NCBI GenBank assembly: GCA_046563655.1
Contig: CM102288.1
Span: 6,448,001 to 6,512,000, forward strand
Source of the DNA: Yuukianura sp. NJ FZ-2021
Taxonomy: Eukaryota
Reading direction: 5' to 3'
DNA length: 64,000 nucleotides
Positions 19,612-53,263 of the stretch are shown here, in pieces. The position numbers and the translations under genes were made by a program. The first letter of the stretch is position 1. Each line of letters begins with the position of its first letter. Below the pieces are notes generated by a model. That model did not search any database, was not told where the DNA came from, and was given only the letters and a program-made list of their open reading frames with translations.

Positions 19612-20379
<768 letters not shown>

Positions 20380-21207: not shown

Positions 21208-23302
21208 ACTGTGGAGGCTGGACACAGCAATGTCACCCACTTTATAGCATGACGGCATTCAGACACAAATTAAATAAACAGAACTAACAAATTAATTAAA
21301 CTAATGATCAAACAATTCGCAGCTTTCTTTAGAGATGCATTTTAATTAAAAGCATTTAATTTTGAGTTGATTCTGTATTACTGCCTTAAATATTTTGTGT
21401 TCTTATTTTCAAAAATGTCCACATGCGAAGGCGAGAAAGAGTAACGAAGAGCTAGCAGTTTGTTGAGCCCAATTTTTTTTCCGGAATTTAAAATTATGCA
21501 ATTGGCGCCAATTCTTCAGCAAGCGTCCTGCCTTCCTTATGAGCATCAAACTTAACTGACTTTGATGGGAGAAAGTTATTTGGTCAATTGGAAAGTTGTG
21601 CAAACCTAATTGATCTTTAACGATTAATTTGAAGCTGAAATGGGGGCTAAAAAGCTCGAAACAATTTTCACTAGTGTACTTCTGGTCACTTCACCAGAAG
21701 ATACACTCACTTCAACATCAATGTCTTGTTTTCGCTTAAAAACTGCATTATCAAAACTGGAACCAAAACTACAAAGAAAGTAGTGAAAACAATTGAGAGA
21801 AAGTGGAATTAGAAAGATTTTGAAGTTTGGCTTTGATTAAACAAACGAGCATGCAAGTAGAACTTGCGTTTTTAGAGTAGACGAAGCCAAAACTGAAAAT
21901 AAAGTGAAGTCAACTCAAACAGAGTCTCCCTGTTCTCACGAACTTTTTCCGTTTTTACACTCAAAAAATTGAAACGTTACTTACGTAATGGTGTCGGAAA
22001 AGCATCGAAAATAACTTTTTACAAAAGAAAATTGTTGCAACTGCCAAGAAACAACAATTTCAGCATTAATTGGCCTTTCGTGCCCTATTTTCTGTAAAAT
22101 AATTTTAAAAATGCATTTTTTTAAACTTTCATAAGAAGAGGACAAAGAAAGTTTGGAAAAAAGAAGCAGAAAAAGTGGAAACAAAAAGTTTTTAGAACTT
22201 TTACTTAGATTTGAGATGGGAAACTGCATGGAGAAACCGTGAGATTAGTCTACAAAAACCAAAATAAAATTGAACTGGAGTGAACTCCAATAGATTCTGC
22301 CTGTTCTGAGGAACTTTCTCCGTTTTTCCACACAAAATGTTTGTTTTTTGGGGGTTTGGAGTTGGGATGGTCCCTGCATGTATTTTTTCCATTGCCACCC
22401 ACTCCCTCCCCCACCATCCAACTCCAAAATAGTAAAACACAGCTTCATCCTACTCCTTTCGTCTCGCATATAAAAGGGAAGCACAACAAATTTTTCTCAT
22501 TCACTTTTCTGATCTCGTATGAGAGAGGAAGGCAGAGGAAACACAGTTTCCTTATGTAAACAAACATCGTCTGCTTCTTCTTCACTTATTTTTAATTGCC
22601 ATCTCTAATTAACTCTTCTTTTAGTAATTAATCGATTGAAACGATTCAAAAAATAAATTTTGAATTTGCGAAAAGATGTTTTGGGGGTTTGGAGTTGGGA
22701 TGGTCCCCACATACATTTGTGCCATTGCCACCTCACGCACTCCCCCAACATCCAACTCCAAAAGTGTAAAATTCTGCCTGATTCTACTCCTTGAAGAGTA
22801 GGATTGAGGTGATTTTGGTTTGTGTCTCCTTTTATATAAGACCAAGACGAGTGCCAAGTAGATTCAAGTGCGGACCTCCGATGTAACAAAAATCCTCCGC
22901 AACTTGGTTTCAGTGATTTTGTCTCAAGTTCAGAGTTTCATTTGAGGCTAATTCTCAGAAAACAAGGGAAACTGCTGACTTCTTATCGCAGCATTAGACA
23001 CTGTTGTCTTTGAACTTGAGACAAAAGTCCGCCAAATTTTTTGAAAAATTCAAAAGCTAAAATCAAAACAAAATAAGGAAGCGCAGACGAGAAGTTAATT
23101 GGCAGTTACTAATTAGTCCGATCGAATCGTGATTAATTTCTGGAGTAGAGTGAGTACCAGAGTCAAAGGTAAACTAAACCAACGTAACCGTCAGCTGTGT
23201 TTATTGCTTTATCTAACGGTATCGTTCCTTACATTGATTAATCGATTAATGTAACCGGTCATTGTTTTGTTCTTTAGTTGCAGATTGCAGATATCAATCA
23301 GA
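21208..23302 (+). repeat. Copy A of a ~2.1-kb inverted duplication (TE-like body plus promoter/5'UTR exon/intron of MRPL12)
   Basis: Reverse complement aligns by eye with 50247-53263; the ORF-track peptides in the two copies are near-identical. Confidence 0.92.
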
Positions 23303-23312
23303 AGTTGGAGAC

Positions 23313-24125
23313 ATGGATTTGATGGTTCGTCAACTGGGGAGAATGGGGAAATGGAGTGGTCCATTTCGATCACGACTGCCTGGACGTCAAAGTCAACGTT
23401 CCACAGTGGCTTACTTTAATGGGATGTTCTTCTCCACGTCCAGAAATGAGGCCCAATTGGAGAGTCCTCTTGTTGTATCCACTGCTGTGGGCCATGACAA
23501 AGTCTATCAAGGGAAGATAGTGAAATTAGTGGATGAGATATCTCAGTTGACGTTGCTTGAAGTTGGTGATTTGAATGAGTTACTGAAAAAGAGACTCAAC
23601 ATACCGGATACACCGATGATGACTGGAATGATGATGGCAGCTGGCGCAGCACAGAATCAACCGAAGGAGGCGAGGAAAACGATTTCAACTCGAAACGAAT
23701 TCCCCCTTTTTCCCTCCCTGTTTTCCTTCTCTTTTTTCTCACAAACCGTTTTTTCTACGTATGTAATAACAATATAGTAATGCTGTTTTTCACTTACAGG
23801 AGGCGGAGGAGGTTGCTCCAGTCAGAGTTCAGACTCAATTTACCGTTAAACTGCTCAAGTACGACGAAACCAAGAAGGTTGCTCTCATCAAAGAAGTCAA
23901 AGCTCTTTTGGAAGGCATGAACCTTGTCCAGGTATCTCACAAAATGACACTTGCAAGACTGGCAACTCAATTTTAATTTCTTACGCTACTTGTTTAATGG
24001 TTTTTCAGGCCAAGAAGTTCGTGGAATCGTCTCCTACCACAGTGAAAGCAGATATTCCCAAGGAGGATGCTGAGAAACTGGCAGCAGCTCTCACTGCAGC
24101 TGGAGCCACTTGTGAAGTCATCTAG
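23313..24125 (+). CDS. MRPL12: Mitochondrial ribosomal protein L12 (bL12m), 3 coding exons
   Basis: KIVKLVDEISQLTLLEVGDLNELLKKRLNIPD, FTVKLLKYDETKKVALIKEVKALLEGMNLVQAKKFVES. Confidence 0.96.
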
Positions 24126-25447
24126 AACCTCTGTTCAAGTTTTACTGGAATTCAGAATTCAGTCATCCTAAAATTACTATAGAAATTGCTAGACTTTTAT
24201 ACTAAAACTATTCACACTTTATTCGTTTCCAGATAAAGGCACAATCTTGAACCTTCACTTTAGTTTTTTTTTCAAAGTTAGTAGTTGAAATTGTAAGAAA
24301 TAAGTTAAGTTAGTTTTCGAAAATGGAAGGTCATTTTGAACTGAAATGTAAATAATTTATTGCCCCTTTGACCGTAACCCTTAAAACGTATCGTATGAGA
24401 AGAGACATTTTGAATTGATCTCTTAGACACTTAAGAACAATGGACCCACTGAGTTATGTTCACAATGGTTGATCCTTATCCCTCAGCAGAGATACATGAA
24501 AAAATACAACTTTTATCTTAAGGTTGTTCTATCGACTATCCAATTCCAAGGCTTATCGAATATGAAAGGGCCCTTTGCAGTGGACGTGGAAGACACTTAA
24601 GCCTGAGGATCTCAGTTACAAAAATAAGGGAGAGAAGGTACTTAACTAGGATTAACTAATTAGCACTCCAATTGGTCCTTGACTCCAACTTATCCTAACG
24701 AATCTTGATTGTCAGCACAAGTACTCACAGTATTTGAATCTTCGCTTGATTTGGATTCTGGAAGACTGGAATTGTTGAGGATTGAGCCTTCAAATTATCG
24801 ATAACTTAAAATTAAGTACAAACTAATTAATACAAAAATATTCTCTATGAGGTTGGACTAGGATTCTGCAACTTCCCTCACTTGACATGCTAATTCCTAT
24901 TGGTAAAAAACTTAAGAGGTCAGAGGTCACAGCACTCTTCAAAATTACATCTTTTAGACATCATCTTCATTTTTACACAAGAGAAACTTACAAAGTAATT
25001 CCAAATGGATGTTACTTTTGTCAGAAAAGCTAAGATGATTGTTCCGTTTGAGTGATTGGAAAAATAGGAAAATGTGAATGGGTTTATTCACTTCGAGTGG
25101 CCACACCCCTCCCGCAGGCCATCCCAACAACCAGACCACTCCAATTTCCATTTCCTCAAACCACAATTGCAGCAGACTCACAACTTATTTGCTCACTCTA
25201 CTTCTGCACATGCGGAAAATACAGTTCTCGACCAAGTGACCTGACCTCTGACCTCGGTCTATGTACAACCACTGCTCTGAGGCAGCATTGACTCCTTAGT
25301 TGCATTGAAGTAGTTGAGAGGAGGACAGCGCTGCTGTTCAAGTGGAAAGCGGAGGAAGGGGGCTGGAATGAAACGGAGGGCAGTGGCAGACGCTGCTATA
25401 ACGCTTCACAGACGTTTAAGCGATTCGGTGGTCGCTTCAAAGACGCT

Positions 25448-27841: not shown

Positions 27842-28020
27842 GCCCTAAAAGTCAAAACAAAACTAAATTTAGTTCATTTAACTTTGGTTCTTATTATCTT
27901 ATTCTTACTTTTCAATTTCACTTAACTCTGCTTCTTAATTTTACTTTTGACTTTTCAATTTGACTTGTCAATTATTTCTGTTTTCCCTTTTGGAAATTTT
28001 GAAATTTTGACAAGGAATTT

Positions 28021-31000
28021 TGTAAAATGCCTAGGTCCTCCTCGGTCAAAGGTCACTTTTCGTTTACGTCGGAACCTAACGTTTGACTTTTACTAACTTG
28101 AAAAAGCTATCAGAATGGCCCTAATCAAGTCAGTGGTATTGAATATGTTCATATTTAACCAATTTATTTACCAATTAAAACAAGTAATAATTATCAGGAA
28201 AAACCAACTTCTCTTCTCTCCCCCTTCTTCTTAACAACTCTAAAAATACCCAAAACAGTAACGGTTGAAAAATGCCAACTTTGAATGAACCGCCAACATC
28301 TCAAATCAAACGAATACTTACAGAGTTTCAAAAATGTTCTTAAAATTAGTCAAGAAATTAATAACATAACTTAAATAATTTTAACGTATTTTAACACAAC
28401 TCCCACCTTTCTTTTGTGAGACCTTAACAAAAGAAACCAAACATAGCCAAACACTTTAACTCTAGTATTAACAATCAAAATTCGAAATCAAAATTAGCCC
28501 TAAACTTCACCAAAACGTACTGGCTTTCGAACCTGTCGACCACATCGTGTCTCCTTCACTACACCGTCAGTTTCAGCATTTAAAATCGGTGTAGACGTCT
28601 TCGTCACTGAATTCTTCATCTTGATCTTCTTCTCGAGCGTATCCACTCCAGGATCTTCTTGGCGAAACTCCAGTGGATAAAGTCGCTGTAGCGGCCTCAC
28701 CAGGAATCCGTTCTCGCACTTCAGTTTTGCGACTCGATGTATCCCATCATGTCCAGGCATCAATTCCATGATACGACCCATGGGCCAAAGGATCCTCTTC
28801 TGATTTTCGTGTCCGATCAGAACACAATCTCCGACTCGAAACTCACGAACTGTTCCCTTTGTCTTCTTTTGGATCAGTAGACTGAGGTATTCCTTGCGAA
28901 ATCGTTCCCTCAGCTCCTGCAGCATAACGTCGAGTCGTTTCTTTCTGTTTCCCAAGGTGTCCACTTTCACGAACTTTGATTCTGGCACATCACTGTATGG
29001 TAAATTGTGCAAAAACATCGCTGGTGTCAGTGGAACGAGATCTTCGGGATCTTCTGTAACGTAGGTCAAGGGTCGGTTGTTCATTGTCGCTTCGACTTCA
29101 CAAAGACAAGTTTCTAGTTGAATGTACGACAATTTTCCGAATCCCAGCATCCTTTTCAAAAGATCCTTGAGCGTCCGAATCAGACGCTCCCACCAACCTC
29201 CCCACCAAGGTGCAGCCGGAGGGTTGAACTTCCAAAGGATTCTCATGTGCTTCGTTCTTTTCTCAACTTCTTTCCAGTTGATCGTTTTGAAGAGGTTGTC
29301 CGCGCCGTGGAAATTGGTTCCGTTGTCACTATAGACAATGGCTGGCCTCCGCTTCCGTTTTGAAAACCTGATGAATGACAAAAGAAAATCATCAGTTGAA
29401 AGTGATTCTACTAATTCCAAATGAACCGCTCGGAATACGGCACAAGTGTAGATCACTATCCACACTTTCTTCTTGCACTGGAGTACTAAAGGGCCGGCCA
29501 AATCCACCCCTGTGACCTCAAAGGCCCCCACATCTTTGACACGGTCTTCTGGCAGTGGTGCACAGGGAACTGTTGAACTTTTAGCAGTAAATCTCTGGCA
29601 CGTAACACACTTCTTGAGCTGTTTCTTCACAACCAGTCTCCCCTTCAGAATCCAGAATCGTTCTCTCAGTGAGCAAAGGACAAATTGAGCACCAGCATGA
29701 CAGTTAAAAATATGCTCATCACGAATCAGTAAGTCCACAAGTGGGTGATTGCTGGGAACAACAATTGGAATTTTAAATTCCTCATTGTCTTGACGTCGTG
29801 TAATTTTTGTCGTCACTCGGAAGAGTCCGTCAAGACACTTTCCCACTCTCACTCCACTTAGTACTGTTGTCTCAGCCGGAAATACTTCCACTTGCACTAA
29901 CTTCCAAATCCTGAGTTCAGCATTGCAAATTTCAGAAGTTGTCAGTGTCGTTCCTCCATCACTGGAAGTCTTCCTCGTTTTGCCAATGAACCGAAGAACA
30001 AACGCCAAAATACGAAGATTACCAATGTATGAATTCTTTCGAACGTACCACAAAGGAGTAGGCAAGTTACAGTTCAATGCTGTCACAACACTCTTCTTCC
30101 TTTCACGTCCGATCTCTTCTTCGTTTGCTTTCGGTTCAGAATTCGGCCATTCAGCTTCATCTAATTTCAACCATGATGGTCCCTCCCACCATTTCAACTC
30201 CAGGTATTTTTCTGGATTGATTCCTCTTGAGGGAAGGTCGGCAGGATTTAAGTGGCCAGGAACATGTCTCCACTTCCCATCGTCCGTCAATTTCACTATC
30301 TCCTTAACTCGATTGCCGACAAACGTTCCCCAGTCATCACTACGCCGAATCCAAGATAAGGCCGTGGTGGAGTCACTCCAGAAAGTCACTGGCACTTTTT
30401 CCAGTTCCAGAGCTTTTCTGACAGTTGAAAGGAGCCGAGCCGCAATCGAACATCCTAGTAGTTCTAGTCGAGGGATAGTTGACTTCTTTAGAGGTGCCAC
30501 ACGAGATTTTGATTGAATCAGCTGAACTGACACTTCCGAGTCCGTCTTCACTCTCAGAAAAACCACTGCACTGTACGCGACTTTACTGGCATCCGAAAAT
30601 ACATGGAGTTGAAATTGCCCATTGTTCTCAGCCGCTCCAGTACACTTTCTCGGAATTCTGAAAAGTGTCAATAAAGGAAGTACATTAGTCCACCAATTAA
30701 CAAACTCATTCTTCATTTCTCCAGTGATCTCATCTTCCCACTGCCGATTCTCTACCCATGACTTCTGTAAAAGAAGTTTCGGCGGAAGTAACACTGGACT
30801 CAAAAAACCTAACGGATCATAGATTTGCTGTAGTTTGGACAAAATAACTCTCTTCGTTATCTTCTCTGGCAAATCACCAGTCAGTGGAGCACAAAACAAC
30901 GAGTCCTGACACTTGTCCCACTTCAACCCAAGGACGTTAGTCACTTTATCTTCCGTGTCGTCACCAGTGTTCTCCCATTGGCGTAGGTCCATTTTTGCTT

Positions 31001-34000
31001 CATCTAACAGCCGTGTAGCGACTTGTTTGAACTTCACTAAATCACTGAAAGAATCCAAGGAAAGGACACAGTTATCCACATAAAGAGAATTTCGCAACAT
31101 TTTCACAACTTCTGGAAATTCCTTTTCGTTTTGCTCTAAATGATGACTGATGACTGCTCCCAGAAGGAACGGCGAGCAATTCATCCCAAAAACCACACGA
31201 TTATGCTGAAATGTCATCATTTTCTTACAGTCCTCATTCTCCCACCACAAAAACCGAACACAATCACGTTCTTCCTTTTGGATTTCAATCATAAGGAAAG
31301 CCTTACGAATGTCGGCGATTACCCCGATCTTCTTCATGCGAAATCTCATGAGTATTGAAGGGATCACTTCTAGTAAGTTCGGGCCCTTCTCCAAACACTC
31401 ATTCAAAGACGGAGCTCTCCCGACCTTGCATGATGCATCGAATACCGGTCGGATGGGTGTCGTTTTACTCTCCAGTTTTAGAACTGCTCGATGCGGTAAG
31501 TAGTGACACTTCCTCTTCTCATCGTCAGCTTCTTCTGAGGCAATTCTTGAAATGATTCCTTCCGTCTCCCATGCTTTGAAAATGGAATCATAATCTTCAA
31601 ACTTGTTCAAAGATTTCAATTTTCGGGTGGTCGACTCCAAACGTTTTTCTGCTACCAGTCGATTTGTTGGAATCGTCATCTCTCTATCCACCCATGGTAG
31701 GCAGACAGAGTAGCGCCCGTCTTCATTCTTCTTCACAGTTTGTAAGAAATGATCATAAGCCAAACTTGCTCGTTCTTCTTGTGTCTTGACTTCAATGGGA
31801 TCACGAATACCGAGAGTTTCTAATTTCCACAATTCAGTGACAGACGAACTTGAAACAGTCATTGTCAGCACTGTCATACCAATCTGCTCTTCGGAAATTT
31901 CAATTTGTCTCTCCTGTCCCATTAAGCACCATCCAAATCGTGTCTCAGTGGCGGTCAGTCCTGTCGACAGTTGCACTATGTTCCCGGTCAAGAGACTTCC
32001 TAAGACATCTGCACCAATGAGAACTTCAATTTGGGATGGATTGCCTTCTTCTGAATCGTTGATTTGAATTCCCCTTCTCTTCAACTGTGATTTCCAAAAT
32101 CCTTGAGTCAGTCGGGGAACCACACCACAAATCTGTTCATGATCCATCACCAAAAGTTCACTGGAAAAAGAACAAGATAAGTTTTCCAAAATAACTGAAT
32201 ACAACTCGTGAGCCACATCTCTAATTTTACCACCACCAAACACGACATGGTTAACTTTGAGGCTCTTCACTGAAATCAAACCAAGTTCCTCAGCTGTTCG
32301 TTTCAGAATGTAAGACTTTTGAGATCCACAGTCCAACAGGACTCTAACTTTCTTCCATTTCTTGTTGGCAGGATTCTTGACTTTAAGAATTAAAGTACGA
32401 AGAATAACTTCACTGGAACAGCTCAAATTTGTTTGTGTACTGGGTGTACTTTCGGTATTCGGTTTCACTTCCGTTGCCTTCTCCCCTCCATAACACATCA
32501 CTGCCCAATGTCGTTTACCACATGCTGAACACTTCACTTTTGAATGACATTTTGCTGAAAGATGACCACTTCTGAGGCATATGAAACATGCACCCTTTAA
32601 CTTCAGCCTCTTTCTTTTGTCTTCAGTGCTCATCTTCATGGCTTTAAAACAGTCTTGACTGTTATGCCCCTTGTCACAGAAAATGCATGAATTTGACCCA
32701 CTAAACAAACCAGCAGCAGTGGGGGTATCTTCCTCCTCCGCTTCTTTCTTTCGCTGAGATCGTTTTTCAGTTGCACCTTGGAATCCCGTTTTAGCCAGTT
32801 TTCTCTGCTCCTCATTTTCAACTTCCACTTTGAGGAAGTCCAGAAGAAAATCAAGCTCCGACTTCGGTGGATTCTCGGTACTACCGTCTTTGCCAAAATT
32901 CGTGCTTCTCTGCCATGCCACGAGGATGTCTTCGGGTAAGCTTGATTCGACCATCGGGTAAAGAAAAATGACCATCTGCTCCACTGTCACTCCCAAACTT
33001 TCCAAAGAACGGAGATGTGACTCAAGTCGGTCGTAATGAGTGGAGAGTGCTACTTTATCTCTACCCCGACTTGTAAGAATCATCGAAATTAACTCCCGTA
33101 CATAAACTTGCTTTAAAAGCTTCTCGTTGCCGAATCTTCGTTTCAAAGCATCACGAGCCTTGGTGTAGTTTTCGGCAGAATGTGGAAAACTGGAGACTAA
33201 TTCAGCAGCTCTGGTCCCCTTCACCATACAGTGATCTAAGAACTGAAACTTGTCAGCGTCATGAACATCTTCACGACTGTCAATTCGCTCAAAATGAGCC
33301 CACCAGCCCAACCAGTCCTTTAGTTCACCAGAGAATTTCTTGAGATCCACTTTTGGTAACTTGATCTCCACTTGATTCGAAATAGAACTTCGTCCACCAA
33401 TGCTATGATGAGAACCAGCAACTTGGATAGGCAGCACTGGTGGCTCTAAGAATTCACCCACGCGAGCTCTCATTTCACTCACACTCATTGAGTACTGCTG
33501 AGTCATTGCCGATTCGTGTTCCAAAGTCTCAGTCGAAACGTTTTCATCATCCAGTAACTTGTCGTTGATGGATTCATCAAGTTCATTGAGCCTCTTCACG
33601 TGAGCATCTAGTACATCAGCTGAGGCTTTGATGTGAATTCGATTAGGATTTTCCTTCTTCAATTCCAAGTCCATCGCCGCGATTAACTTGGTCACTGCTC
33701 CCCGAACAATTGCTCGTTCCCTCTTCCGCTTGTCCATTTCAGATCACCGAAAATTGCCACAGAAAGGGACCAATTTAGCTTCAGTGATTGACAATTGAAT
33801 TGGGACGATTCTCACCTGGTTTTGTCCTCGTCCGGTGAGGACAAACCACTAAGCAAGCAGTTGTTTTATCGTGATGAAATCCAAGTAAGTCCAAATCCTC
33901 AGGGTCAGTTCAGATCATCAATACCGGTTCCTTGTTTCAAAGTAGAATACCAGATCAATACCAATTGCCAAACTTGACAGTGGAACGATTCTCACCTGGT

Positions 34001-34491
34001 TAAGTCCTCGTCCGGTGAGGACTAACCACTACGCAATCAGTTGATAGTAGTTGATGAGTCGACAGTGTTCCAATGCCCGTACGTCAGTTTAGGTCCGGCC
34101 AGGGTCACCAATTAATGTAAAATGCCTAGGTCCTCCTCGGTCAAAGGTCACTTTTCGTTTACGTCGGAACCTAACGTTTGACTTTTACTAACTTGAAAAA
34201 GCTATCAGAATGGCCCTAATCAAGTCAGTGGTATTGAATATGTTCATATTTAACCAATTTATTTACCAATTAAAACAAGTAATAATTATCAGGAAAAACC
34301 AACTTCTCTTCTCTCCCCCTTCTTCTTAACAACTCTAAAAATACCCAAAACAGTAACGGTTGAAAAATGCCAACTTTGAATGAACCGCCAACATCTCAAA
34401 TCAAACGAATACTTACAGAGTTTCAAAAATGTTCTTAAAATTAGTCAAGAAATTAATAACATAACTTAAATAATTTTAACGTATTTTAACA
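28021..34491 (-). mobile_element. Full-length BEL/Pao LTR retrotransposon
   Basis: 376-bp LTRs (28021-28396 and 34116-34491; TG...CA) that look identical, 5-bp TSD AATTT, PBS TGGTGACCC just inside the 5' LTR, purine-rich PPT before the 3' LTR, one intact ORF. Confidence 0.97.
28500..33737 (-). CDS. BEL/Pao Gag-Pol polyprotein (Gag with Cys/His knuckles, aspartic protease, RT, RNase H, integrase)
   Basis: 1745 aa: CIFCDKGH and CFICLRSGH knuckles, LLDCGS protease, YLPHRAV/ADIRKAF/YVDN RT, LHVFSDAS RNase H, GVDLAGP/SDNGTNF/PWWGGWWER integrase. Confidence 0.97.
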   Translation of the reverse strand: MDKRKRERAIVRGAVTKLIAAMDLELKKENPNRIHIKASADVLDAHVKRLNELDESINDKLLDDENVSTETLEHESAMTQQYSMSVSEMRARVGEFLEPPVLPIQVAGSHHSIGGRSSISNQVEIKLPKVDLKKFSGELKDWLGWWAHFERIDSREDVHDADKFQFLDHCMVKGTRAAELVSSFPHSAENYTKARDALKRRFGNEKLLKQVYVRELISMILTSRGRDKVALSTHYDRLESHLRSLESLGVTVEQMVIFLYPMVESSLPEDILVAWQRSTNFGKDGSTENPPKSELDFLLDFLKVEVENEEQRKLAKTGFQGATEKRSQRKKEAEEEDTPTAAGLFSGSNSCIFCDKGHNSQDCFKAMKMSTEDKRKRLKLKGACFICLRSGHLSAKCHSKVKCSACGKRHWAVMCYGGEKATEVKPNTESTPSTQTNLSCSSEVILRTLILKVKNPANKKWKKVRVLLDCGSQKSYILKRTAEELGLISVKSLKVNHVVFGGGKIRDVAHELYSVILENLSCSFSSELLVMDHEQICGVVPRLTQGFWKSQLKRRGIQINDSEEGNPSQIEVLIGADVLGSLLTGNIVQLSTGLTATETRFGWCLMGQERQIEISEEQIGMTVLTMTVSSSSVTELWKLETLGIRDPIEVKTQEERASLAYDHFLQTVKKNEDGRYSVCLPWVDREMTIPTNRLVAEKRLESTTRKLKSLNKFEDYDSIFKAWETEGIISRIASEEADDEKRKCHYLPHRAVLKLESKTTPIRPVFDASCKVGRAPSLNECLEKGPNLLEVIPSILMRFRMKKIGVIADIRKAFLMIEIQKEERDCVRFLWWENEDCKKMMTFQHNRVVFGMNCSPFLLGAVISHHLEQNEKEFPEVVKMLRNSLYVDNCVLSLDSFSDLVKFKQVATRLLDEAKMDLRQWENTGDDTEDKVTNVLGLKWDKCQDSLFCAPLTGDLPEKITKRVILSKLQQIYDPLGFLSPVLLPPKLLLQKSWVENRQWEDEITGEMKNEFVNWWTNVLPLLTLFRIPRKCTGAAENNGQFQLHVFSDASKVAYSAVVFLRVKTDSEVSVQLIQSKSRVAPLKKSTIPRLELLGCSIAARLLSTVRKALELEKVPVTFWSDSTTALSWIRRSDDWGTFVGNRVKEIVKLTDDGKWRHVPGHLNPADLPSRGINPEKYLELKWWEGPSWLKLDEAEWPNSEPKANEEEIGRERKKSVVTALNCNLPTPLWYVRKNSYIGNLRILAFVLRFIGKTRKTSSDGGTTLTTSEICNAELRIWKLVQVEVFPAETTVLSGVRVGKCLDGLFRVTTKITRRQDNEEFKIPIVVPSNHPLVDLLIRDEHIFNCHAGAQFVLCSLRERFWILKGRLVVKKQLKKCVTCQRFTAKSSTVPCAPLPEDRVKDVGAFEVTGVDLAGPLVLQCKKKVWIVIYTCAVFRAVHLELVESLSTDDFLLSFIRFSKRKRRPAIVYSDNGTNFHGADNLFKTINWKEVEKRTKHMRILWKFNPPAAPWWGGWWERLIRTLKDLLKRMLGFGKLSYIQLETCLCEVEATMNNRPLTYVTEDPEDLVPLTPAMFLHNLPYSDVPESKFVKVDTLGNRKKRLDVMLQELRERFRKEYLSLLIQKKTKGTVREFRVGDCVLIGHENQKRILWPMGRIMELMPGHDGIHRVAKLKCENGFLVRPLQRLYPLEFRQEDPGVDTLEKKIKMKNSVTKTSTPILNAETDGVVKETRCGRQVRKPVRFGEV

Positions 34492-42323: not shown

Positions 42324-45281
42324 TCAGTTCCAAGCCGCCGGCTCTGCAAAAACTTGCTTGATCACCAGTTTCTCCGCCCTGTCAAACAAAAACACAAGTT
42401 AGTTTTCGGAATTAAACAATAAAAAAACTGTTTTCTTTCAATTTGTAGTGAAGATTGTGATGAATTTTAAAGTGGATTTGAATTTGAATTTGCCTCACTC
42501 TGTTTTTGGTCTCTTCTTGAGCTGTTCCCTGGGCGGGGAGCTGTCGCCGCAGACGAGTTTTCTGAAAATGTCGCCAGGTCGTTCTGGAAGAGTGTCGCCG
42601 AGCAGCGGTCGCTTCTTCTCCTCCTTGACAAGTTTTTGGTAAGCAGCAAAGGTGAGTACGCGATAGCCAGCACTGCACTCGATGTTGTCCATCACGAGGG
42701 AACTCTGGTCCTTGTCATTCAAAGACACAAACAGAGAACTGTTGTTTCTCCAGTACGTCTGCACATTACCTACAATTCAAACAAACCACAAATACAAATT
42801 TCAAAGGTTTCACTTTAAGTTACTCATAATTTCAAAAACTATTTTGAAAGTAGCAAAAACTTCAAAAAGAAAAGGAGAGTGTTTTTTTTTTACCAAATGG
42901 GTTGAATATTTGGAGAATACTTTGCTGAGTGGCATCCTTCGGACACGTCACGTAAAACACATGAGCTCGACTCGGCGTCACTAAAAACAAAACCAAACAC
43001 TTTTCTCTTTTTTTCGTTTCATTTTTTTTTAACTTCAACTTTTTTTTTCGAAGGAACTGAAGAAGCGGTGACTTACAATCTCTTCCGGAAATGTTGAGGT
43101 ACGAAATGTCAGCCATTCGCATCAAGTACAATCTAATGATTCATCGGAAAGAGAAATTTCTTAAAATTTTAGAAAAACAATACAATGGTAGCTGGAAATG
43201 TTAGTTTTTTGAAAAAGATAAGAACTTGCTTGTTGAGGAATGGGAGTGTGAGTGGGGAATCGGGCAGAACTCGCTTCTGCGGCGGATGCTGCAACGAGCC
43301 CAGATACTGCAACAACCCAATGAAGCAACACCCAGTTGTAAACGCATCAAATCCTGCAAAAGTTGTCACAAACCACTTTGTTCAACATGTTAAAACGTTA
43401 AACGTACTTAAAATTGTTAAAATGTCTTTAAAAAGATTATTCGTTTACCTGCTTCGTGTTTCTTGTTGTCTCTCAACTCGTAGCTACTTGTTCGGGAAGT
43501 ACTTATTCCTAAAAAACGAAACAAATTTTAGCTTCAGCCGACGTTTTCAAAACGTTCTTGTAAAAAAGTTGTTTTTGCTTGGAAAGTTGGCTTTACTTGG
43601 AAGTTTGAACGGTGGTTGCTGGATTCTTTTGGCCAGATCGAAGAGTCCCCGCGACTGGATGAGTTCTCGAAATGGTCCAGCGGATGCCATGTGCTTCGTG
43701 TCAACTAAATTTGGAAAACTGCTCTGCACAATCTCTTTGAACTCGGCCAAAGTATGCGGCAACTCATCAATAAATTGATGGATTGTATGAGCTACATCCA
43801 GCAGCATATTGTGTCCAACCACATATTTCGCCTAAAAATACAAAAAATCAGTTTTTCTCAAAAATGCTTTCAAGTTTTTCTTAAAAACGTACCGATTGGC
43901 TTATTTTCCTGATGACTTTGGAGAATCCAACATTTTGAGAAATCGTTTCGTGGTCCTTTTGAAGTTTCTCGGCCTCTCTGAGAGCTTGTGCCATTTTGCC
44001 CAATTTCACAATGCGCAGAACACGGTTTTTGGGGTTCCCTCGATTAGCTGGAGGTTTTAAACTTCCTTCACTCACTTCCTGTGCAGTGGATGTCTTTCCA
44101 TCAGAAATGTCATCCGACATTGCTTCAGAGGCAGCTTTTGAGGACTCCTCTTCGCTTTCATCGTCTGCATCGGAGACTGCGACCATTTCAAAGTAGAGGT
44201 CGTTGCTATAAGCTGGCTTGATGTTGTGGAACACGAGTTTTCGTTGGAAGGGCGTTAGGTGCAGTAGAGTCATCTCCTGAGCTCCACTCTTCCGAAACTT
44301 CTGAATCTTGTGACTGAAAATACACAAATTCATGTTTTCAGAACGAGTAAAATTAAGTTAGTTCAGTGACAACCTAGATAGTTTAAGTTTTTAGTCTAAT
44401 GTTTGGGATTAACTTTGCGAGGTATGTCACTTTTTGTGCTCCTCACCGAAGACATTACTTTGTGAGTTGAAGAAACTTCTTCATGTTTTCGGGAACTGGA
44501 ATCGGACTGGAATTGTCTTCGGCGGTTGCGTTGTTACGTTGCTCAATGTCTTCCGACATGAGCGTTTCATTCCCAAAAGTTAGGTAAGGGATTCCTGCAA
44601 TAATCAAATTCGCATTCAATATAACAAGATCTGGCTATAGATAAAGAATTGACGGGTAATCAGCAGGAACATAGATGAGGTTAAATGCTGAGATAAAAAT
44701 AGATAAGATAGGATAAATTGGAAGTTGAGGATAAAGGAAGAGTGAAGATAGATAAGGATAAGGATAACGATGCAGATGAGGATAAGGACATAATTTGTTT
44801 TAAATTCTAAAATTGAATGTCGAAGTACCTTCATAGATGAGTTTGTTGAAATCGAATCCGAATGCAGCCAAAAACTCGAGCGATGAACTCTCACAGAGAA
44901 AACGGACGTTGGGACTTTTCTTGGTGAGTTGTCTGGGGTAAGTGTAGAAGTTGAATGCTTCATGAGTGAATTCGTCCTTGACCTTATCGTAGAAGAAGGA
45001 GCAGAGTCCGAACTGGATCACGAGGAAACTAGTGGCAGAGTTCCTCACTGACAAGTATCGATCCTCCAACGACTCAAAGCAATTCTCCTTCTCATCCGAC
45101 ACTTTGAGTCCCGAGTACTCGCAGTCGATGGCCAGAAACAAGGCACGATCAATACTCGCTTCGATCTGAGGCAGTAGCTCCGCAAAATCTAAAAACGATA
45201 GAAGAACGTTTAAGCATGTCTGCAAACCGAAAAATTTTACCACCAAACATGATCCGACTTACTTTTTTCGGTTACTTCCAT
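42324..45281 (-). CDS. PARN: Poly(A)-specific ribonuclease PARN (multi-exon)
   Basis: MEVTEKN|FAELLPQI..FLAIDCEYSGL, FLVIQFGLC, FDFNKLIYEGIPYL, VGHNMLLDV, FPNLVDTKHMAS, HEAGFDAFTTG, C-terminal FAEPAAW. Confidence 0.93.
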
Positions 45282-46538
45282 TTTAGTCGCTCCATACGAT
45301 CATTAACCACTCATTGAAACGTACTCCGAAACCGGAGATTCCTGTACATCCAGAAATCGTTCAATTTTCGAAATTTTCAAACCAAAATCAACACAACTAT
45401 CTGAAAAAAATCATTTTCAAAAAAGAACTGCGAATGAAAGCAATAACAGCTGAAAAATGGGGTGTCACTAAATAGCAGAATTAGCTGATTTCGTCGTACT
45501 AAACACTCGACTTCAGTCTGCGACCTAGGCTTATACATGAGCATCATTGTTGTCATTTTCTTTGAGGATTAATAATTAGAACTCAAACTCTTACGGTTAA
45601 AATTACAGATTTGAAAAAAACTAAAGCAAATTGTTGTTGAAAATGTATTTGGACTTTGTTATAATTGGTATTATTCTTGTTGGCCTTAAACCTGGAACTC
45701 GTACTATATTAAATTGCACATAAGGCCGTGACTGCCAAAATGAGATGATAGGGTAATTTCTGTGTTTTCCGTGGATTAGGTATCACCTTGCTACGCAAAT
45801 TGCGGATGACTTACACAACAATCACTCCAATTGTAACCACAACTTGCACCAAAGGGTCCAGCTACAATCACTCTTGTTGCCACCAAGAAGTTACAACAAA
45901 TAAATTCCATTCAATTGGTTGTGACAATTCTTTACGGTAGCGTCGAAACCACTAAGGTTACAGTTACAGGCGTGAGTATTGCCCCTGAGAGTTACAATTA
46001 GTTAGCGCTAGTTTACTCCTCCTTTTTTGCGAAATTGGTTGAACTAAGGAATAACTGTTCTTAATGCATTCCGAAAGTTTACTCACTTCCACTATGTTTT
46101 ATGGCTACAGTTGATGGCTATACATGAGTGGCAACCAATGTATAATGTGATGTAACCAAATTAAATTCAGGTGGCTACTAAAGTTGCAACACAATGTAGC
46201 CACCAATTGCATTTGCAGTCCATTACAAATTTCGTTATTCGGTTACAATGACTACCGAGAAACATTACTCCAACCTCATTTTCCGAACTGTTTTGATTTT
46301 GGATTTGAATTCAAAGTGACAAGGTAGTTTTTACCTTAAATCAATCAATTAATTAACGAAAAGCGACGTTCCTGTGTTGATTGGCTTGTTGTAAAGTGAG
46401 GAGTCATTGAGTAAGTTCAGTTATGTAAGTATTTTACAATTTACAATATGACTACTTTATTCTTGTTTTGATATGGTTTTAGAACTTATGAGCTGTTTGT
46501 CATTTGATCATTTTTGTTTAGTCAATTCAATTAACATA

Positions 46539-48668
46539 ATGAAGTCCAAACCTCCGACAAAGAAGGCCAAGTTGGACGTTCCTGCTGTTCCCTCTGCCTC
46601 ACCCGCCACCGCCCCACATTCAACCGAAGGTAATTTCAATACTCACATTCACAAGTTTCTTCAACTCCTGATCTAACCGAATCATTAGTCACAAGATAAC
46701 GAAGGAAATTGAAATTTTAAACACATTTGACTAATCTTTGTGTTACTTTTACAGGAAAACCAAAAGCCAAGATTCTGAGTGCCATAAAAGAAGCATCAGC
46801 ATCCAAAGCCACCAGTGGTGGAAGTATTCCAGCATCAGCAGAAGCAGCTTCTACTAAATCAAAAACTACTGGAAGCATACTGCCCAGTCCAACTGCTATT
46901 CCTCCCGTCCGCCTCTCCTTCCCCACCCTCGCTGTGCCTGAAGTGCCCAAGGAATTCCAGCGTATCTCTGGCTCAGTTAAAACTGATGGAACAGAACCTC
47001 CTTTCCTTTCTATTGAGGAAATTGAAGCAATCCAACATGAACTGGAGACTCTTTGGTCTTCCCTGGCTGTCCGCTCCAGAACAATCAAAACGGAGTCTGA
47101 CATTCTGGAATCTGTATTGGGTGGACAGGGGAGGGAGGAACCCTCGTTTCTCTCTTGGGTGAGCACTATGATCCACATCACCAGGAGAAAATCAACACAG
47201 TCAAAAGCATCATTGAGTCTGGCCATGGAACCAGAACGACTGTGTCGGCTGCTGCTAAGTTAGTCCTGGGCACAGAGCCTGTGAAAGCCCTTCTGCCAAC
47301 TCCTCCGGCGTCAATCGTCGTTGGATCCAGTCGAAAGTCAAACAATTCTGCTGCTGCTGCCACCAGTGCTTCTGTTCCCAGTCCAACAATTTCTGCCTCG
47401 GGGAGGTCAGTTCAGTTTTCTTAATACTAAAAGTTATGTTAACTATTTGTAATTATTATGTAATTATTACAGTATGTTTTATCTCTACTTTATGTTATTA
47501 ACTTTATTCTTACTTTTTAGGCAGCCAAAGAAGAAACTGAAGGCTGAGTTGGGAGATAAGTCGAAGCTTGGAGGAATTAAACCACCGAGATCTGAGCAGA
47601 ACCGAAGTCACTTGGTTTCCATGGGTAGGCGATCCGTATTTTAAGCGTTACTTACATTATGTTACTTACATTATGTACATTACTTGTTTTAGATGAGTCT
47701 TTTCTTCGTCTTGAGGCTCCTAACCAGTTCTGGGAGTTTGCTGACTCGTACTGCCGAGATATTCGTCCTGATGATATTGCACTGCTTGAGGCCGAGGTTG
47801 CTGAGTTCAGGGAAATTCCTGACTCAACTTTCAGCGTTCCGCCACTCGGGAAACACTTCAGTGGAATCGAGAACAAGAACGTAGATGCTTCTGTGCGGTA
47901 AGGAACTGTTTCACTTCAATTCAAATCGGAAATTAAAATTAACCGATTCTATTTTTACTTTTTTAGAGCTCGAGACGAACGAGAGAAAAGTGGGAGAGAT
48001 GTGGTTGGACCGCTGACTCAGCGATTGGTTACGGCGTTGGTGGAAGACCGTGTTTCTCAGTTCAGCTTCCAGTCGAGGAACGGCGGCGGTGGAAGAGAAG
48101 AGCTCAACGGCGGTCTGATTCCTCGACCTGGACTCGTCAAAGCCCTCGGATTGGATGTCACTGGACCCGGAACGCAGATCACTTTAGAAAGTAGACTCAA
48201 AATGGTATTGGCTGAACAAGGATACTTGCTTGGAGATGAGGCAAATGACGACCCCTTTAATCCTGATAATGGAGACGAAGTACTGGCGGAAATCAAAAGA
48301 ACGTTTGCCACTCTCCGCAAACTGCACAAGCACAATCTAGATAAACTGGAGAAACTGGATATTGCGGCCAAGGTACGCAGTGATTCTCATTCCTTTTAAA
48401 ACAAGAGCGAGTTTAAGAATTCTTTCGGTTCAAAAAAAGTTATTTTGTTTTTAAATTTCAGACCGAGTTGGCACGACTTCCGCACAAGAAGGAGCTGGAG
48501 AAGGCTGACAAGGACATCATAGCAGCGTATCGAGCAATCACTGCCTGCAGAATCAAAAGAAAACCAATCACTCAGAAGGAGAGAAGCATCGCCACCAAAG
48601 CACTCCAGTTCCGTCAACACACAATCGACAAACTAAACTCCGCAACTCCAACGGAACCGACCAACTAA
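46539..48668 (+). CDS. TADA3: Transcriptional adapter 3 (Ada3, SAGA/ATAC); one frame discontinuity near 47130
   Basis: IEAIQHELETL, APNQFWEFADSYCRDI, VPPLGKHFS, GPLTQRLVTALVED, DEVLAEIKR, RIKRKPITQKER. Confidence 0.85.
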
Positions 48669-48948
48669 CTAATTCAACTTTTACACTCACTCTGACTAAT
48701 ATCCAGAATAATCACAACAGAGTAACATTCACGTAAGCATGCAACAGTTATCTGAGCATGTCATTTTTACATAACTTACATAATCTCAGTTAACTTTTAG
48801 TAGCTGGAACTAGGAACTTGGATCGATCCACCTGAACATAGGGTCGCAAGCTAAATTTATGTTTATGATTTTATGTACAAAATGTCTAGGGTTTTAGGCT
48901 AATTTTAGTTTTTAATAAAAAGTCATTGAGTCAAGGACTTCTGCGGAT

Positions 48949-50231
48949 TTAGAAACCATGCGCCCTTTCCATTCCCTGGCCAACACTTTCCCTGCTCTCC
49001 TTGATCTCCAGATAGGCATTGAGAGACAGCTCAAGTTCCGTCCTTCGAATGGAGTCCAACTGAATGTAACTTCTAAGTTTATCCACGTCATCCCTCGACG
49101 AATTCAGGATTTCCTTGGACTTGCATTCAGGAAACATCAGAGCAAACAGATTCACGAGAGGAACTGCATCCGACTGAATCCTAACAAAACAAATCCGTTT
49201 TTAGCAACGGTTGATTCGCTACTAAATTTTTGAACTTTGTTGAATTCTTACCTCTCATGTTGAATGTTAAAAATGAGGAGGTTGTCCATCTTCCGTTTCC
49301 GAGTTAGGTAAAAGACCAGCGGGCCATAGTGCCGAGTGGACTTGAGATAGTCGTAGTCACTCATTTCGTCTATGTGCTCATAAGTAGCTTCCACTACTGA
49401 AATGTATTGGGGGTCATCTGGGTCAAACTGTACACAGGCTCTGTCCAGAACAAACTCGTACGTGTTGTCGTCTTCAGAAGCTCTATCCAGCACTGCTTTC
49501 AAAACTTCCGGTTGGGAGAACATTTTGGGTACTGTGAGTTCCCTTCCCGCTTCAGTAGGAAAGTAAATGTTGTTCAACTTCATGCGTAATCTCCGATTAG
49601 CAAATTTTAGAGTTCCGTCCAACTCTCTCGTCACCATCAGCCTTTCCTAGAGAAAAATAAATCATTATTTTACTTTCACGTTTGAAAAACGTTTTGTTAC
49701 AAAAACTGGGTTTTTATGCTGACTCTGTTGGTACAGTTGAGAGAGATGTCCGTAAAGACAAACGCAGAGGGATCGTGACCTTGAATTCTCGGGTCAAACG
49801 ATAGAATCCGTTCGTCGTCTTTGGCAGGCGGAAGTACTGGAGGCATTTGGAGTAAGTAATCTGCTCTTTCCTCAGTTTGTTCAACGGCTTCTTCTAAATC
49901 TTTGACAGTCATGAAGCTGATCCTGGGTTCTTTCAGTTTCTGTCCAATCTTCCGATTTCTAAAAATTCTGCTGTAGTCTCTTCCTGTCAACTCCTTCAAC
50001 AGTTTCTGTACATCGGGCCGAAGAAAGGCTTCCAACCTCCCGTAGTCCTTCTCAGGGTCTCCTGATGTAGTCATTCCGACTGATGTCCCTAAATTCAGTT
50101 AACAAATTAGTTAATCACTCTTCAGTTTTAATATCAATGTAAATTTAATCCTAACTTTTCGGAAGGAACAACTGCAGTCTGGAATTGAGGGTTGTTCCTA
50201 TGGCTCTTCTCAGTCCATATCGTAACATCAT
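48949..50231 (-). CDS. MRPS22: Mitochondrial ribosomal protein S22 (mS22), multi-exon
   Basis: FLRPDVQKLLKELTG, LLQMPPVL, FVFTDIS, RELDGTLKFA, YEFVLDRACVQFDPDDP, LKSTRHYGPLVFYL. Confidence 0.93.
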
Positions 50232-50246
50232 CCTACCAGTCCCTGG

Positions 50247-53200
50247 TCTGATTGATATCTGCAATTAAGGAACAAAACATAGACCGGTTACATTAATTGA
50301 TTAATCACACAACACTAAAGTAGGGTACCCTTAAATAGACCAACCCAGAGAGCTAACGATGAAGTTGGTTTAGCTTACCTTGGACCGTCGTACTCACTCT
50401 ACTCTCGAAATTAATCACGATTAGGACTAATTAGTACTTCAATTAAACTTCGTCTACGCTTCCTTATGTCTTAACCAAACTTGTCTTCTTGTTAACTTTG
50501 TTTTGATTTTAGCTTTTCAATTTTTGAATAGATTTGGCGGACTTTTGTCTCAAGTTCAAGTCACAATTTGTCTAATGCTCAGATAAGAAGTCAGCAGTTT
50601 CTCTTGTTTTCGGAGAATTAGCCTCCAATGAAACTCTGAACTTGAGACAAAATCCCTGAAACCAAGTTGCGGAGGATTTTTGTTACCCTGGAGCCGAGAG
50701 CTGTGCCTCCTGGTTAGATTAGGCAATAGCTTAATCTACTCCTAAGCAAAAGAAAAACCGGGTTTCATTTGGAGATCATACTCCAAAAATAGATTAAGCT
50801 AATTTTTAGTTTAGCTTTAATCCCATTTTCGGTTCAAATACGGAGCGCGGCGGACAGTGTTCCCAATGGGAACTTGCTCCTAACTGTGAGTTCAAAACCT
50901 GCAGCACATATAATTTTTTTTATTTTGTCAGAACGTGCCTACTCATATAATACTGCCTTGGTCAAAGGTCAAGCCAAATTCGGTTGATCAAATATTAACT
51001 GCATAAAGTGGTTTCCTTAAGAAAACACTCACAATATGCATAACACAAGACCATGCGTGACCCAGCTGAGGTCAACATGTCACCATTAGATCTTACATTG
51101 AATTGAACAACGAATTAAAGCTGACAAGCATTAAAACACTCACTCTAGATGTCAAGAGGGGTCATTTACAGTTGACCTGAGCTTTGACCTTGCCGAGGTC
51201 AAAGGTCAGGTCGCGGGAATATGTATCGTACATGAGAGAGGTTATCTACTTAATCGAAACAAGTTTGTTATGTGTCATTTTTCAGGTCAAGGCCATCAAA
51301 TTTGAAGCAAAACGAACTTTTTTTGCATTAACCCAAAAGATAAAACTGCTCCGGAGTGGTTTTTGTTTCAGCATCAAAATCTGGTTAGATTAGGAAGGTG
51401 TGATCTCTGAAACTCTTAATCGGTATTAATTTTCTGGGTGATCACATCCTAACCAGACTTACGATTATCTCAAGATTAGAGATAATCGGAAAAATTCCGA
51501 TTAGTGGTTTCGGTGTGCTCGCCCTTTTTTCTTAATCGGGAAATAAATTCCGATTATCCAGGCACAGCTCTCGGCTCCTGGAGGTCCGCACTTGAATTTA
51601 GTTGGCACTCGTCTTGGTCTCATATAAAAGGAGACGCAAACCAAAATCATCTCAATCCTACTCTTCAAGGAGTAGAATTAGGCAGAATTTTACTCTTTTG
51701 GAGTTGGATGTTGGGGGAGTGCGTGAGGTGACAATGGCACAAATGCATGGGGGGACCATCTCAACTCCAATCCCCCCAACATCTTTTCACAAATTCAAAA
51801 TTTATTTTTTGAATCATTTCAATCGATTAATTACTAAAAGAAGAGTTAATTAGAGATGGCAGTTAAAAAGAAGTGAAGAAGAAGCAGACGATGTTTGTTT
51901 ACATAAGGAAACTGTGTTTCCTCTACCTTCCTCTCTCATACGAGATCAGAAAAGTGAATGATAAAAATTTGTTGAGCTTCCCTTTTATATGCGAGACGAA
52001 AGGAGTAGGATGAAGCTGTGTTTTACTCTTTTGGAGTTGGATGGTGGGGGAGGGAGTGGGTGGCAATGGAAAAAATGCATTGGGGACCATCCCAACTCCA
52101 AACCCCCAAAAAACAAATATTTTGTGAGGAAAAACGGAGAAAGTTCTACAAAACAAGCAGAATCCATTGGAGTTCACTCCGCTTCAATTTTATTTTGGCT
52201 TTGTAGACTAACCTCACGTCTTCTCCATGCAGTTTCACTTCTCAAATCTAAGTAAAAGTTCTGAAAACTTTTTGTTTCCACTTTTTCTGCTTTTTTTTTC
52301 CAAACTTTCTTTGTCCTTTTCTTATGAAATTTTAAAAAAATGCATTTTTAGTGTTATTTAACCGAAACACGGCTGAAAAAGCCAATTAATGCTGAAACTG
52401 TTGTTTTTTGGCAGTTGTAACAATTTTCTTATGTAAAAAGTAATTTGCGATGCTCTTAAGACATTATTACGTAAGGAAAGTTTCAATTTTTTGAGTGTAA
52501 AAACGGAAAAAGTTCGTGAGAACAGGGAGACTCTGTGTGAGTTGACTCCACTTTATTTTCAGTTTTGGTTTCGTCCACTCTAAAAACGCAAGTTCTACTT
52601 CCATGTTCGGTTGTTTAATCAAAGTCAAAGTTCAAAATCTTTCCAATTCTGCTTTCTCTCAATTGTTTTCACTACTTTCTTTGTGGTTTTGGTTCTAGTT
52701 TTGAAAATGGAGTTTTTTAAGCGAATACAAGGAATTAATGTTGAAGTCAGTGTTTCATCTAATGAAGTGACCAGAAATACACTTGTGAAAATTGTTTCAG
52801 CCCTTTTAGTCGCCATTTCAGCTTCAAATTAATCGTTAAAGGGCAAGTGGTTTGCACAACTTTCCAATTGACGAAATAACTTTCTCCGTTGAAACTCAGA
52901 AGTTAGTTTGATGCTCATAAGGAAGCCATGACGCTTGTCGAAGCATTGGCGCCAATTGCATACTTTTGAATTCCAGTAAAATATTTGGGCTCTACACACA
53001 GCTTCTTTCTCTTCACCCTATTTTACCTTCGCATGTGGGCACTTTTAAAATTACAAAAAACAAAAAAACTAATACGTTAGGCACAAGCAATTTCCTCGAA
53101 GTTAGTTTCGTTGAGAATAATTTTTTTAAAGAATTGTGTTAATTGTTTTACAGTTATCTTTAATTAATTTGTTTGTCCTGTTAATTTAATTTGTGCTTGG

Positions 53201-53263
53201 ATGCCCGTAGGCTCTGCTGCCATCCAGTGGGTAACAGTAGTGTGTGTGTGTAGCCTCCACAGT
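50247..53263 (-). repeat. Copy B of the inverted duplication (includes promoter/5'UTR exon/intron of MRPS22), interrupted by an 887-bp MITE
   Basis: Reverse-complement homology to 21208-23302 along its length except 50691-51577. Confidence 0.92.
50691..51577. mobile_element. MITE, probably PIF/Harbinger-type
   Basis: Perfect 18-bp TIR GAGCCGAGAGCTGTGCCT/AGGCACAGCTCTCGGCTC and CTG duplication within a CCTGG site. It is absent from paralogous copy A (empty site near 22880). Confidence 0.85.

Follow-up and report, generated by a model that had tools for sequence, protein, structure and literature searches.

An inverted duplication upstream of the mitoribosomal protein genes bL12m and mS22 in Yuukianura sp.

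We analysed a 64-kb stretch of the genome of Yuukianura sp. NJ FZ-2021 (GenBank assembly GCA_046563655.1, contig CM102288.1, positions 6,448,001 to 6,512,000 of the forward strand; hereafter the window, in whose coordinates all positions are given) and found that the regions upstream of two mitoribosomal protein genes, bL12m (MRPL12) and mS22 (MRPS22), are diverged inverted copies of a single module. The left copy (L) precedes bL12m and the right copy (R) precedes mS22, with 27 kb between the two genes. Most of the module is a dispersed repeat, and its gene-proximal end is a short segment that was found at these two loci only. As a whole, we favour with about even confidence a reading in which an old local inverted partial duplication gave one of the genes, probably mS22, the promoter and leader of the other. 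The features that make up the two copies, and the coding regions that they precede, are as follows.

20963..23072, + strand: left representative of an interspersed, non-coding, multi-copy repeat whose 3′ tail is A-rich (from contig depth; 5′ limit uncertain)
21208..23302, + strand: left copy L of the module (seed extension, blastn, MAFFT and divergence profile)
23073..23168, + strand: two-copy promoter-proximal segment and predicted non-coding exon 1 of bL12m (contig coverage, divergence of about 0.15, no ATG)
23169..23290, + strand: predicted leader intron with donor AAG|GTAAAC and tandem acceptors ending at 23283 and 23290 (sequence prediction only)
23291..23302, + strand: last 12 shared bases, ATATCAATCAGA, the predicted start of exon 2 and the end of homology (12 of 12 identical)
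23313..24125, + strand: bL12m coding region, three coding exons (Ribosomal_L12_N, PF16320, E 9e-13)
48946..50231, − strand: mS22 coding region, with ATGs at 50231 and 50228 (MRP-S22, PF10245, E 2e-44 and 7e-28)
50247..50467, − strand: right two-copy segment, with predicted exon 1 to 50379, predicted intron 50378-50259 and predicted exon-2 start 50258-50247 (sequence, divergence and contigs)
50468..50496, − strand: 29 nt unique to R, between the A-rich end of the repeat and the two-copy segment (MAFFT and divergence profile)
50497..53263, − strand: right copy, repeat-element part, interrupted by an insertion (blastn and MAFFT)
50687..51581, strand not assigned: insertion of 895 bp found in R only, resembling a miniature inverted-repeat transposable element (MITE), with 22-nt terminal inverted repeats that are 95% complementary (MAFFT)

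Extent of the inverted copies and the genes they precede

Inverted homology was assessed in three ways, by seed extension (arms I1-I17), by blastn and by global alignment with MAFFT, and all three alike recovered the diverged inverted copies that the original prediction had placed at 21208-23302 (+) and 53263-50247 (−). The strongest blocks join L 21393-22879 to R 53065-51580 (90% over 1493 columns) and L 22883-23285 to R 50686-50257 (79.6% over 437 columns), and beyond them weaker patches of homology extend to approximately 21208 and 53263. The longest perfect runs shared by L and R are 57, 54 and 52 nt. Self-blast of the whole window returned no third copy of the module. No homology was found between L 20440-21207 and R 54040-53264, the flanks outside the module, which gave a score of 24 compared to 22.5 ± 2.6 in shuffles and 86 for the positive control. 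The extra length of R (0.9 kb) is accounted for by the MITE-like insertion, which is situated some 310 nt 5′ of the donor predicted for the mS22 leader.

Towards the genes, homology stops in L at 23302, which is 10 nt 5′ of the bL12m ATG (23313), and in R at 50247, which is 15 nt 5′ of the first mS22 ATG (50231), compared to the 10 to 16 nt first reported. Since the alignments run past the transposable-element-like body and reach these two positions, the claim that homology passes into gene-proximal DNA holds, and the similarity represents a true duplication.

The two genes are those originally named, as Pfam assigns the Ribosomal_L12_N domain to one and MRP-S22 to the other. The predicted bL12m protein of about 200 aa has the L7/L12 dimerisation and C-terminal domains together with a mitochondrial-type N-terminal extension, and a springtail bL12m of 199 aa is similar to it in length and C-terminus. 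For the N-terminus of bL12m no relative closer than 60% identity was found, and its start codon is therefore supported by length only. The mS22 protein is 63-64% identical to mS22 of other hexapods, and the best named relatives of both proteins are springtail sequences (63-76% identity). In addition, a metagenome contig of a relative (L001), whose mS22 exon is 75% identical to that of the window, encodes an mS22 that starts MLRYGIRRA, compared to MMLRYGLRRA in the window, which confirms the mS22 start codon. As a separate observation, the first coding intron of bL12m (23669/23670) has no in-phase GT donor; the sole in-phase option is GAG|GCGAGG, suggesting a GC-AG intron.

The signals claimed for a shared leader, namely a homologous donor (GT at 23169 and 50378), a block at the 3′ end of the intron and the exon start ATATCAATCAGA, are all present on reading the sequence. 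The 29-nt word GTGATTAATTTCNNGAGTAGAGTGAGTAC, which spans the predicted shared exon, has exactly two sites in the window, 23129-23157 (+) and 50390-50418 (−), and matches to it appeared in 0 of 100 shuffles. By eye, and in comparison with nearby introns, a GT donor, a pyrimidine tract, an AG acceptor and a typical intron length have been kept in both copies: the predicted donors read GTAAAC and GTAAGC, the acceptors consist of a T-rich tract and CAG, and the predicted introns are 115-122 nt long. An intron of RPS15A likewise uses a GTAAAC donor, and an Ada3-like gene in the window has a comparable leader intron that ends 18 nt before its ATG. Judged from sequence, the predicted leader splice signals are thus ordinary for this genome. 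Neither predicted leader contains an ATG. A search of the whole window against Rfam at gathering thresholds returned 0 matches, so that the shared segment is not a known RNA gene. In L we also observed a 7-nt tandem duplication (ATTGCAG, 23277-23290) that provides the 5′ untranslated region with a pair of candidate acceptors, spaced by 7 nt.

Copy number and divergence along the module

We approximated copy number with DNA contigs from four public runs, of which three (X1-X3) come from one sample of organism A and one (X4) from organism B; the contigs were placed on positions 19000-26000 at a likeness of at least 80%. Over 21340-23072 the summed contig depth is 7-100 times that of the flanks in all four runs. 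In X1, depth is about 55 in the flanks, 400-700 over 21340-22275, 5415 and 2368 at two hairpin-forming sub-repeats within the repeat, 1074 and 521 in the bins up to 23211, and 79 in 23212-23445, and the pattern is the same in the remaining three runs. Up to 26 different contigs cover single positions of the repeat body. Position 23072 is the 3′ limit of the repeat, where other genomic copies diverge: in X2, X3 and X4, 5-8 contigs per run leave the match there into unlike sequence (agreement about 0.5). Because depth is high and many contigs have unlike continuations, the body of the module is a dispersed repeat family with its 3′ end at 23072. No open reading frame of at least 110 aa beyond chance expectation was found in the module. 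The sub-repeats mentioned above form the highest-copy part of the element:

22346-22458 and 22679-22792, + strand: two 114-nt hairpin-forming sub-repeats (84% direct repeat; depth peak 5415 compared to about 55 in X1)

With a contig depth approximately 40-100 times that of the flanks, these may be a small MITE family of their own that is nested within the element.

The gene-proximal end of the module has a different coverage. Positions 23125-23302 are covered only by L contigs (record 5 of X1, with 0 differences, record 19 of X3 and record 27 of X4) and by one R-type contig per organism (record 4 of X1 and record 26 of X4), the latter recognised by a signature in which 52 nt are replaced by 74 and by 30 differences in 178 nt. 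Depth in the bin 23212-23445 is 1.3-1.5 times that of the flanks, as expected if its first 91 nt occur exactly twice. Among contigs with a likeness of at least 80%, then, the final 230 nt of the module (23073-23302) occur at these two loci only. The original prediction had offered a segmental duplication or a promoter-carrying transposable element, depending on the number of copies in the genome; with a multi-copy body and a two-copy 23073-23302, the contigs speak for duplication and not for a promoter-carrying element.

Divergence between L and R, given as the Jukes-Cantor distance K per segment, is uneven along the module.

21208-21392, low-copy distal part: K = 0.46
21393-21700: K = 0.21
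21701-22275: K = 0.11
22276-22879: K = 0.05-0.07
22880-23072: K = 0.10
23073-23168, exon 1 and surroundings: K = 0.15
23169-23234, predicted intron interior: K = 0.41

Downstream of the last of these segments, the intron 3′ end and the start of exon 2 are about 90% identical between L and R once the 7-nt duplication is properly aligned. The conserved islands of the two-copy part fall on predicted exon 1 with its donor and on the region of branch point, pyrimidine tract and acceptor; predicted splice signals have therefore been kept in both copies while the intron interior is near saturation, which is the pattern expected of the leader intron first proposed. Differences in the two-copy part are clustered, with 36 of 5000 column shuffles reaching the observed variance.

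The divergence values also bear on age. Both copies are present in organism B (records 26 and 27 of X4), so the duplication predates the split between A and B, which differ by approximately 1-3% in unique flanks (records 23, 24, 27 and 28 of X4). The low-copy, presumably unconstrained stretches agree on a K of about 0.4-0.46, indicating an old duplication with more than ten times the A/B divergence. The zone of low K coincides with the multi-copy zone, which points to subsequent homogenisation, whether of L and R with each other or through further members of the family.

The same islands could be read without a leader intron, an alternative that we consider doubtful but to which we still allow an appreciable minority chance. 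The block upstream of ATATCAATCAGA would then be a core promoter, transcription would start at about the end of homology, and the island taken for exon 1 and its donor would be an upstream regulatory element. Homology ending 10-15 nt before the two ATGs would equally suit a copy that ends at a transcription start, the conserved 3′ island (68 nt) is longer than a branch point, pyrimidine tract and AG require, and the mS22 of the relative has no evident acceptor just upstream of its ATG. Against this, a conserved island followed by 66 nt near saturation (K 0.41) and then by a conserved T-rich tract and CAG is the pattern of an intron; AAG|GTAA and a strong acceptor are found in both copies, with length and signals that match neighbouring introns, and L carries a tandem duplicate of the acceptor itself.

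Direction of transfer and competing explanations

The genes around R bear on the question of which gene received its upstream region from the other.

42477..45281, − strand: PARN-like CAF1-family ribonuclease gene (CAF1, E 3e-37; collinear with L001 3-2397)
46539..48668, + strand: Ada3-like gene, between the PARN-like gene and mS22 (Ada3 domain and sequence read; 3′ limit approximate)
53473..57463, − strand: kinase/coiled-coil gene, upstream of R (Pkinase; last exon and stop read)

The stop codon of the kinase gene lies about 210 nt from the outer end of R, which leaves little room for another mS22 promoter, and the R module fills the entire space from the 3′ end of the preceding gene to the mS22 ATG. 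Considering this arrangement, R is most likely the working promoter and leader of mS22, with bL12m using the sister copy.

Under the explanation that we favour, an old local inverted partial duplication would have set the upstream region of one mitoribosomal gene before the other. The copied unit would have comprised 1.85 kb from the 3′ side of an interspersed repeat already resident there, together with the adjoining unique 230 nt. Within these 230 nt would lie the proximal promoter, followed by a short exon that is non-coding, a leader intron (about 120 nt) and the opening 12 nt of exon 2. A rearrangement may have severed mS22 from the promoter that it had ancestrally, perhaps in common with a head-to-head PARN-like gene, whereupon the copy would have taken over. 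A promoter of the same regulon may be one of the few replacements that an essential mitoribosomal gene tolerates, and this would explain why both genes are mitoribosomal. Later, the multi-copy centre would have been homogenised by gene conversion, between L and R, with other family members, or both, while the unique parts would have diverged except at signals in use.

Two lines of evidence, both weak, point to mS22 as the recipient and to R as the derived copy. The first is the continuity of the element at L, which runs upstream past the L/R boundary into family sequence: a contig of organism B (record 25 of X4, depth 81.7 compared to about 5) matches 20983-21168 and 21459-22379 and joins the two at a spacing of 281 nt, compared to 290 nt in the window. 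The right repeat-element part has no segment homologous to L 20983-21168. As L continues into family sequence and the flank of R does not, R would be a truncated copy and the outer junction of L an old one. The second line is the arrangement on L001, in which mS22 is head-to-head with the PARN-like gene (ATGs at 2535 and 3433, about 0.9 kb apart); relative to the PARN-like gene, mS22 is inverted in the window, and the two are separated there by the Ada3-like gene. The different order implies a breakpoint between the mS22 ATG and its upstream neighbour in one of the lineages. No convincing homology was found between the PARN/mS22 intergenic region of L001 and the module, the PARN/Ada3 spacer or the outer flank of R. 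The only top hit outside low-complexity sequence joins L001 2770-2797 to window positions 21073-21097 (25 of 25 nt with one 3-nt gap); it is of borderline weight, and may be due to chance, to a repeat fragment present in both or to conservation of a regulatory word. Also in this neighbourhood, the PARN-like and Ada3-like genes are themselves head-to-head, about 1.26 kb apart (45281-46539).

Several points weigh against this account. The exon, intron and transcription start at both genes are predictions made from the DNA. The copy numbers derive from summed depth, which is not the same as copy number, and from placements to which copies below 80% likeness are invisible and in which the pieces listed are a fraction. 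In the two-copy part the longest-identical-run test is not significant (1393 of 5000 shuffles), so that the case for constraint hangs on the variance statistic. Neither a target-site duplication (direct repeat of at least 8 nt) nor junction microhomology was found at the boundaries of R. The direction of transfer depends on a single contig from organism B and a single distant relative, and the gene order of the latter could itself be the derived one; the 25-nt match could mean that the flank of L once belonged to mS22; and under an inversion with staggered breaks the same facts would make bL12m the recipient.

Such an inversion is the next alternative, and we regard it as unlikely. The 27-kb block between the copies (23.3-50.2 kb) would have been inverted through staggered breaks, as in the isochromatid/chromatid model (Ranz et al. 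2007), and the segment between the cuts would have been filled in and left at both ends of the block. Since the left outer junction is continuous repeat, mS22 would then be the original owner of the upstream region, at the left locus, and bL12m the recipient. The geometry fits exactly, with inverted copies at the two ends of one block and their gene-proximal ends pointing inward; the size of 2.1 kb is near the range reported for Drosophila (PMC1885836, PMC3355041), and the 25-nt match would suit an old mS22 flank at L. However, undoing the inversion yields the order mS22, Ada3, PARN-like and not the L001 pair, so that at least one further rearrangement is needed, and the former promoter of bL12m would have been squeezed within about 210 nt of the kinase gene stop. 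Moreover, the duplicated DNA is mostly repetitive, being low-copy only in 23073-23302 and approximately 21170-21390, and no available outgroup has the uninverted order, L001 being too short and too distant to decide. The original prediction had noted the likeness to staggered inversion breakpoints. That inverted copies bound the block is borne out, but the mS22 neighbourhood on L001 is not what an inversion alone predicts.

An origin by 3′ transduction appears improbable. In non-long-terminal-repeat (non-LTR) retroelements, 3′ transduction yields an element followed by the 3′ flank of the donor locus, with a second copy that is 5′-truncated. Here the repeat element would have been copied past its own 3′ end and reinserted, 5′-truncated, with the 230 nt before the other gene. 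The element indeed lacks an open reading frame, its 3′ tail is A-rich and a stem-loop is found close to the 3′ end; R is 5′-truncated relative to L and carries the L flank right behind the end of the element; and there is a candidate 12-nt target-site duplication around L (20951, 23065), albeit a weak one, as 8 of its 12 nt overlap the tail of the element itself. On the other hand, no A-run follows ATATCAATCAGA at either locus, there is no target-site duplication around R, the intron is retained and the class of the element is not established. A landing site that has an ATG 15 nt away on one side and the stop codon of another gene about 210 nt away on the other, next to a gene that is inverted compared to the relative, argues for rearrangement and not for simple insertion.

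Lastly, it is very improbable that the entire module, the 230 nt among it, constitutes a transposable element that brings its own promoter and leader and that inserted twice independently: although most of the module is multi-copy, the 230 nt were found at two loci only in the four runs, 5-8 other copies per run (X2-X4) end at 23072, and it would take an extreme coincidence for two correctly oriented insertions to land 10-15 nt from the ATGs of two mitoribosomal genes. That the repeat alone inserted independently at each locus was considered separately and is rejected, as L and R share both the low-copy 21208-21392 and the unique 3′ flank.

The original prediction had held that one gene acquired its promoter and leader by copying those of the other, which would hard-wire the co-regulation of a large- and a small-subunit protein. 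This is supported in part, by the true duplication, the two-copy exon/intron part and the kept splice signals; a transcription start in the shared exon, splicing of the shared intron and co-regulation of the two genes are putative. A bolder form of the partial-duplication account seems to us unlikely as a whole, and is offered tentatively: one mitoribosomal gene would have lost its own, bidirectional promoter in a rearrangement, and that event would also have rescued it, through a templated copy of the promoter-leader cassette of another mitoribosomal gene 27 kb away; the two cassettes would since have been under shared constraint and partial concerted evolution; the genes for a large-subunit and a small-subunit protein would be hard-wired to one regulatory sequence; and recombination between the pair could flip the 27-kb block harmlessly for both genes.

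Relation to known systems and further features of the window

Inversion breakpoints in Drosophila provide the closest structural parallel. Duplications at such breakpoints range from 46 bp to about 1.9 kb in D. yakuba, with a mean identity of 88% (Ranz et al. 2007, PMC1885836), and from 1 to 7.1 kb in D. mojavensis (Guillen and Ruiz 2012, PMC3355041), according to the portions of these papers that were available. As in the window, the portions describe diverged inverted copies at the ends of a block, of kilobase size and approximately 80-90% identity, with breakpoints near gene starts and possible promoter changes (PMC1885836, PMC3355041). Unlike the Drosophila cases as set out there, the duplicated DNA of the window is mostly repeat and not ancestrally unique, no outgroup has the opposite orientation, and the copy appears to provide another gene of one and the same protein complex with a working promoter and leader.

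Capture of a promoter or 5′ exon by partial (segmental) duplication, together with the replacement of promoters at breakpoints of rearrangements, is likewise similar to what we describe, in that the upstream region is gained at the DNA level, the intron is retained and the donor copy stays in place. In contrast to the usual promoter capture, the putative donor and recipient in the window are unrelated in sequence yet share a regulon, that of the large and small mitoribosomal subunits, and the junction lies in the 5′ untranslated region, so that no chimeric protein results. Compared to non-LTR 3′ transduction, the second copy in the window is without a poly(A) tail or target-site duplication and has retained the intron. 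The divergence profile also resembles concerted evolution of inverted or dispersed repeats, as the copies differ least in the middle of the repeat and far more at its edges. It departs from concerted evolution of inverted repeats in that the zone of low divergence is the multi-copy zone, and conversion by other family members, and not between L and R, may therefore be responsible.

In the literature as far as it was accessible to us, nothing was found that joins promoter duplication with a mitochondrial ribosomal protein, and none of the matches listed for MRPL12, MRPS22 and promoter concerned a shared promoter. The kind of event is already known, namely a partial or breakpoint-associated duplication that supplies a promoter; within the same limits, the pairing of two subunit genes of one complex was not found described.

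As it stands, the module is a structural observation that is well documented and comes from a hexapod lineage with poor sampling. The two mitoribosomal subunits require co-expression of their nuclear genes. If both genes start in the shared segment, the window would hold a clean natural case of regulatory rewiring by promoter and leader copying between unrelated genes of one complex, in which the duplication is dated, constraint can be seen on the signals in use and the inverted repeat is itself capable of inverting 27 kb. Mitoribosomal co-expression would then have been achieved via common descent of a promoter, and the case would illustrate the survival of an essential gene after a break at 15 nt from its start codon.

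Two further features complete the annotation of the surroundings, one upstream of L and the other within the 27-kb block.

20041..20377, + strand: cytosolic uS8/RPS15A, last two coding exons, upstream of L, stop at 20375-20377 (55-aa exon against 40S ribosomal protein S15a chains, E 2e-31)
28021..34491, − strand: BEL/Pao LTR retrotransposon (376-bp LTRs that are 100% identical; open 1747-aa frame)

The frame of the BEL/Pao element contains Peptidase_A17, RVT_1 and integrase domains; the element is apparently intact and looks like a very recent insertion. Self-blast also revealed three blocks of tandem and inverted short repeats, at 11976-12287, 16524-16901 and 60652-61636.

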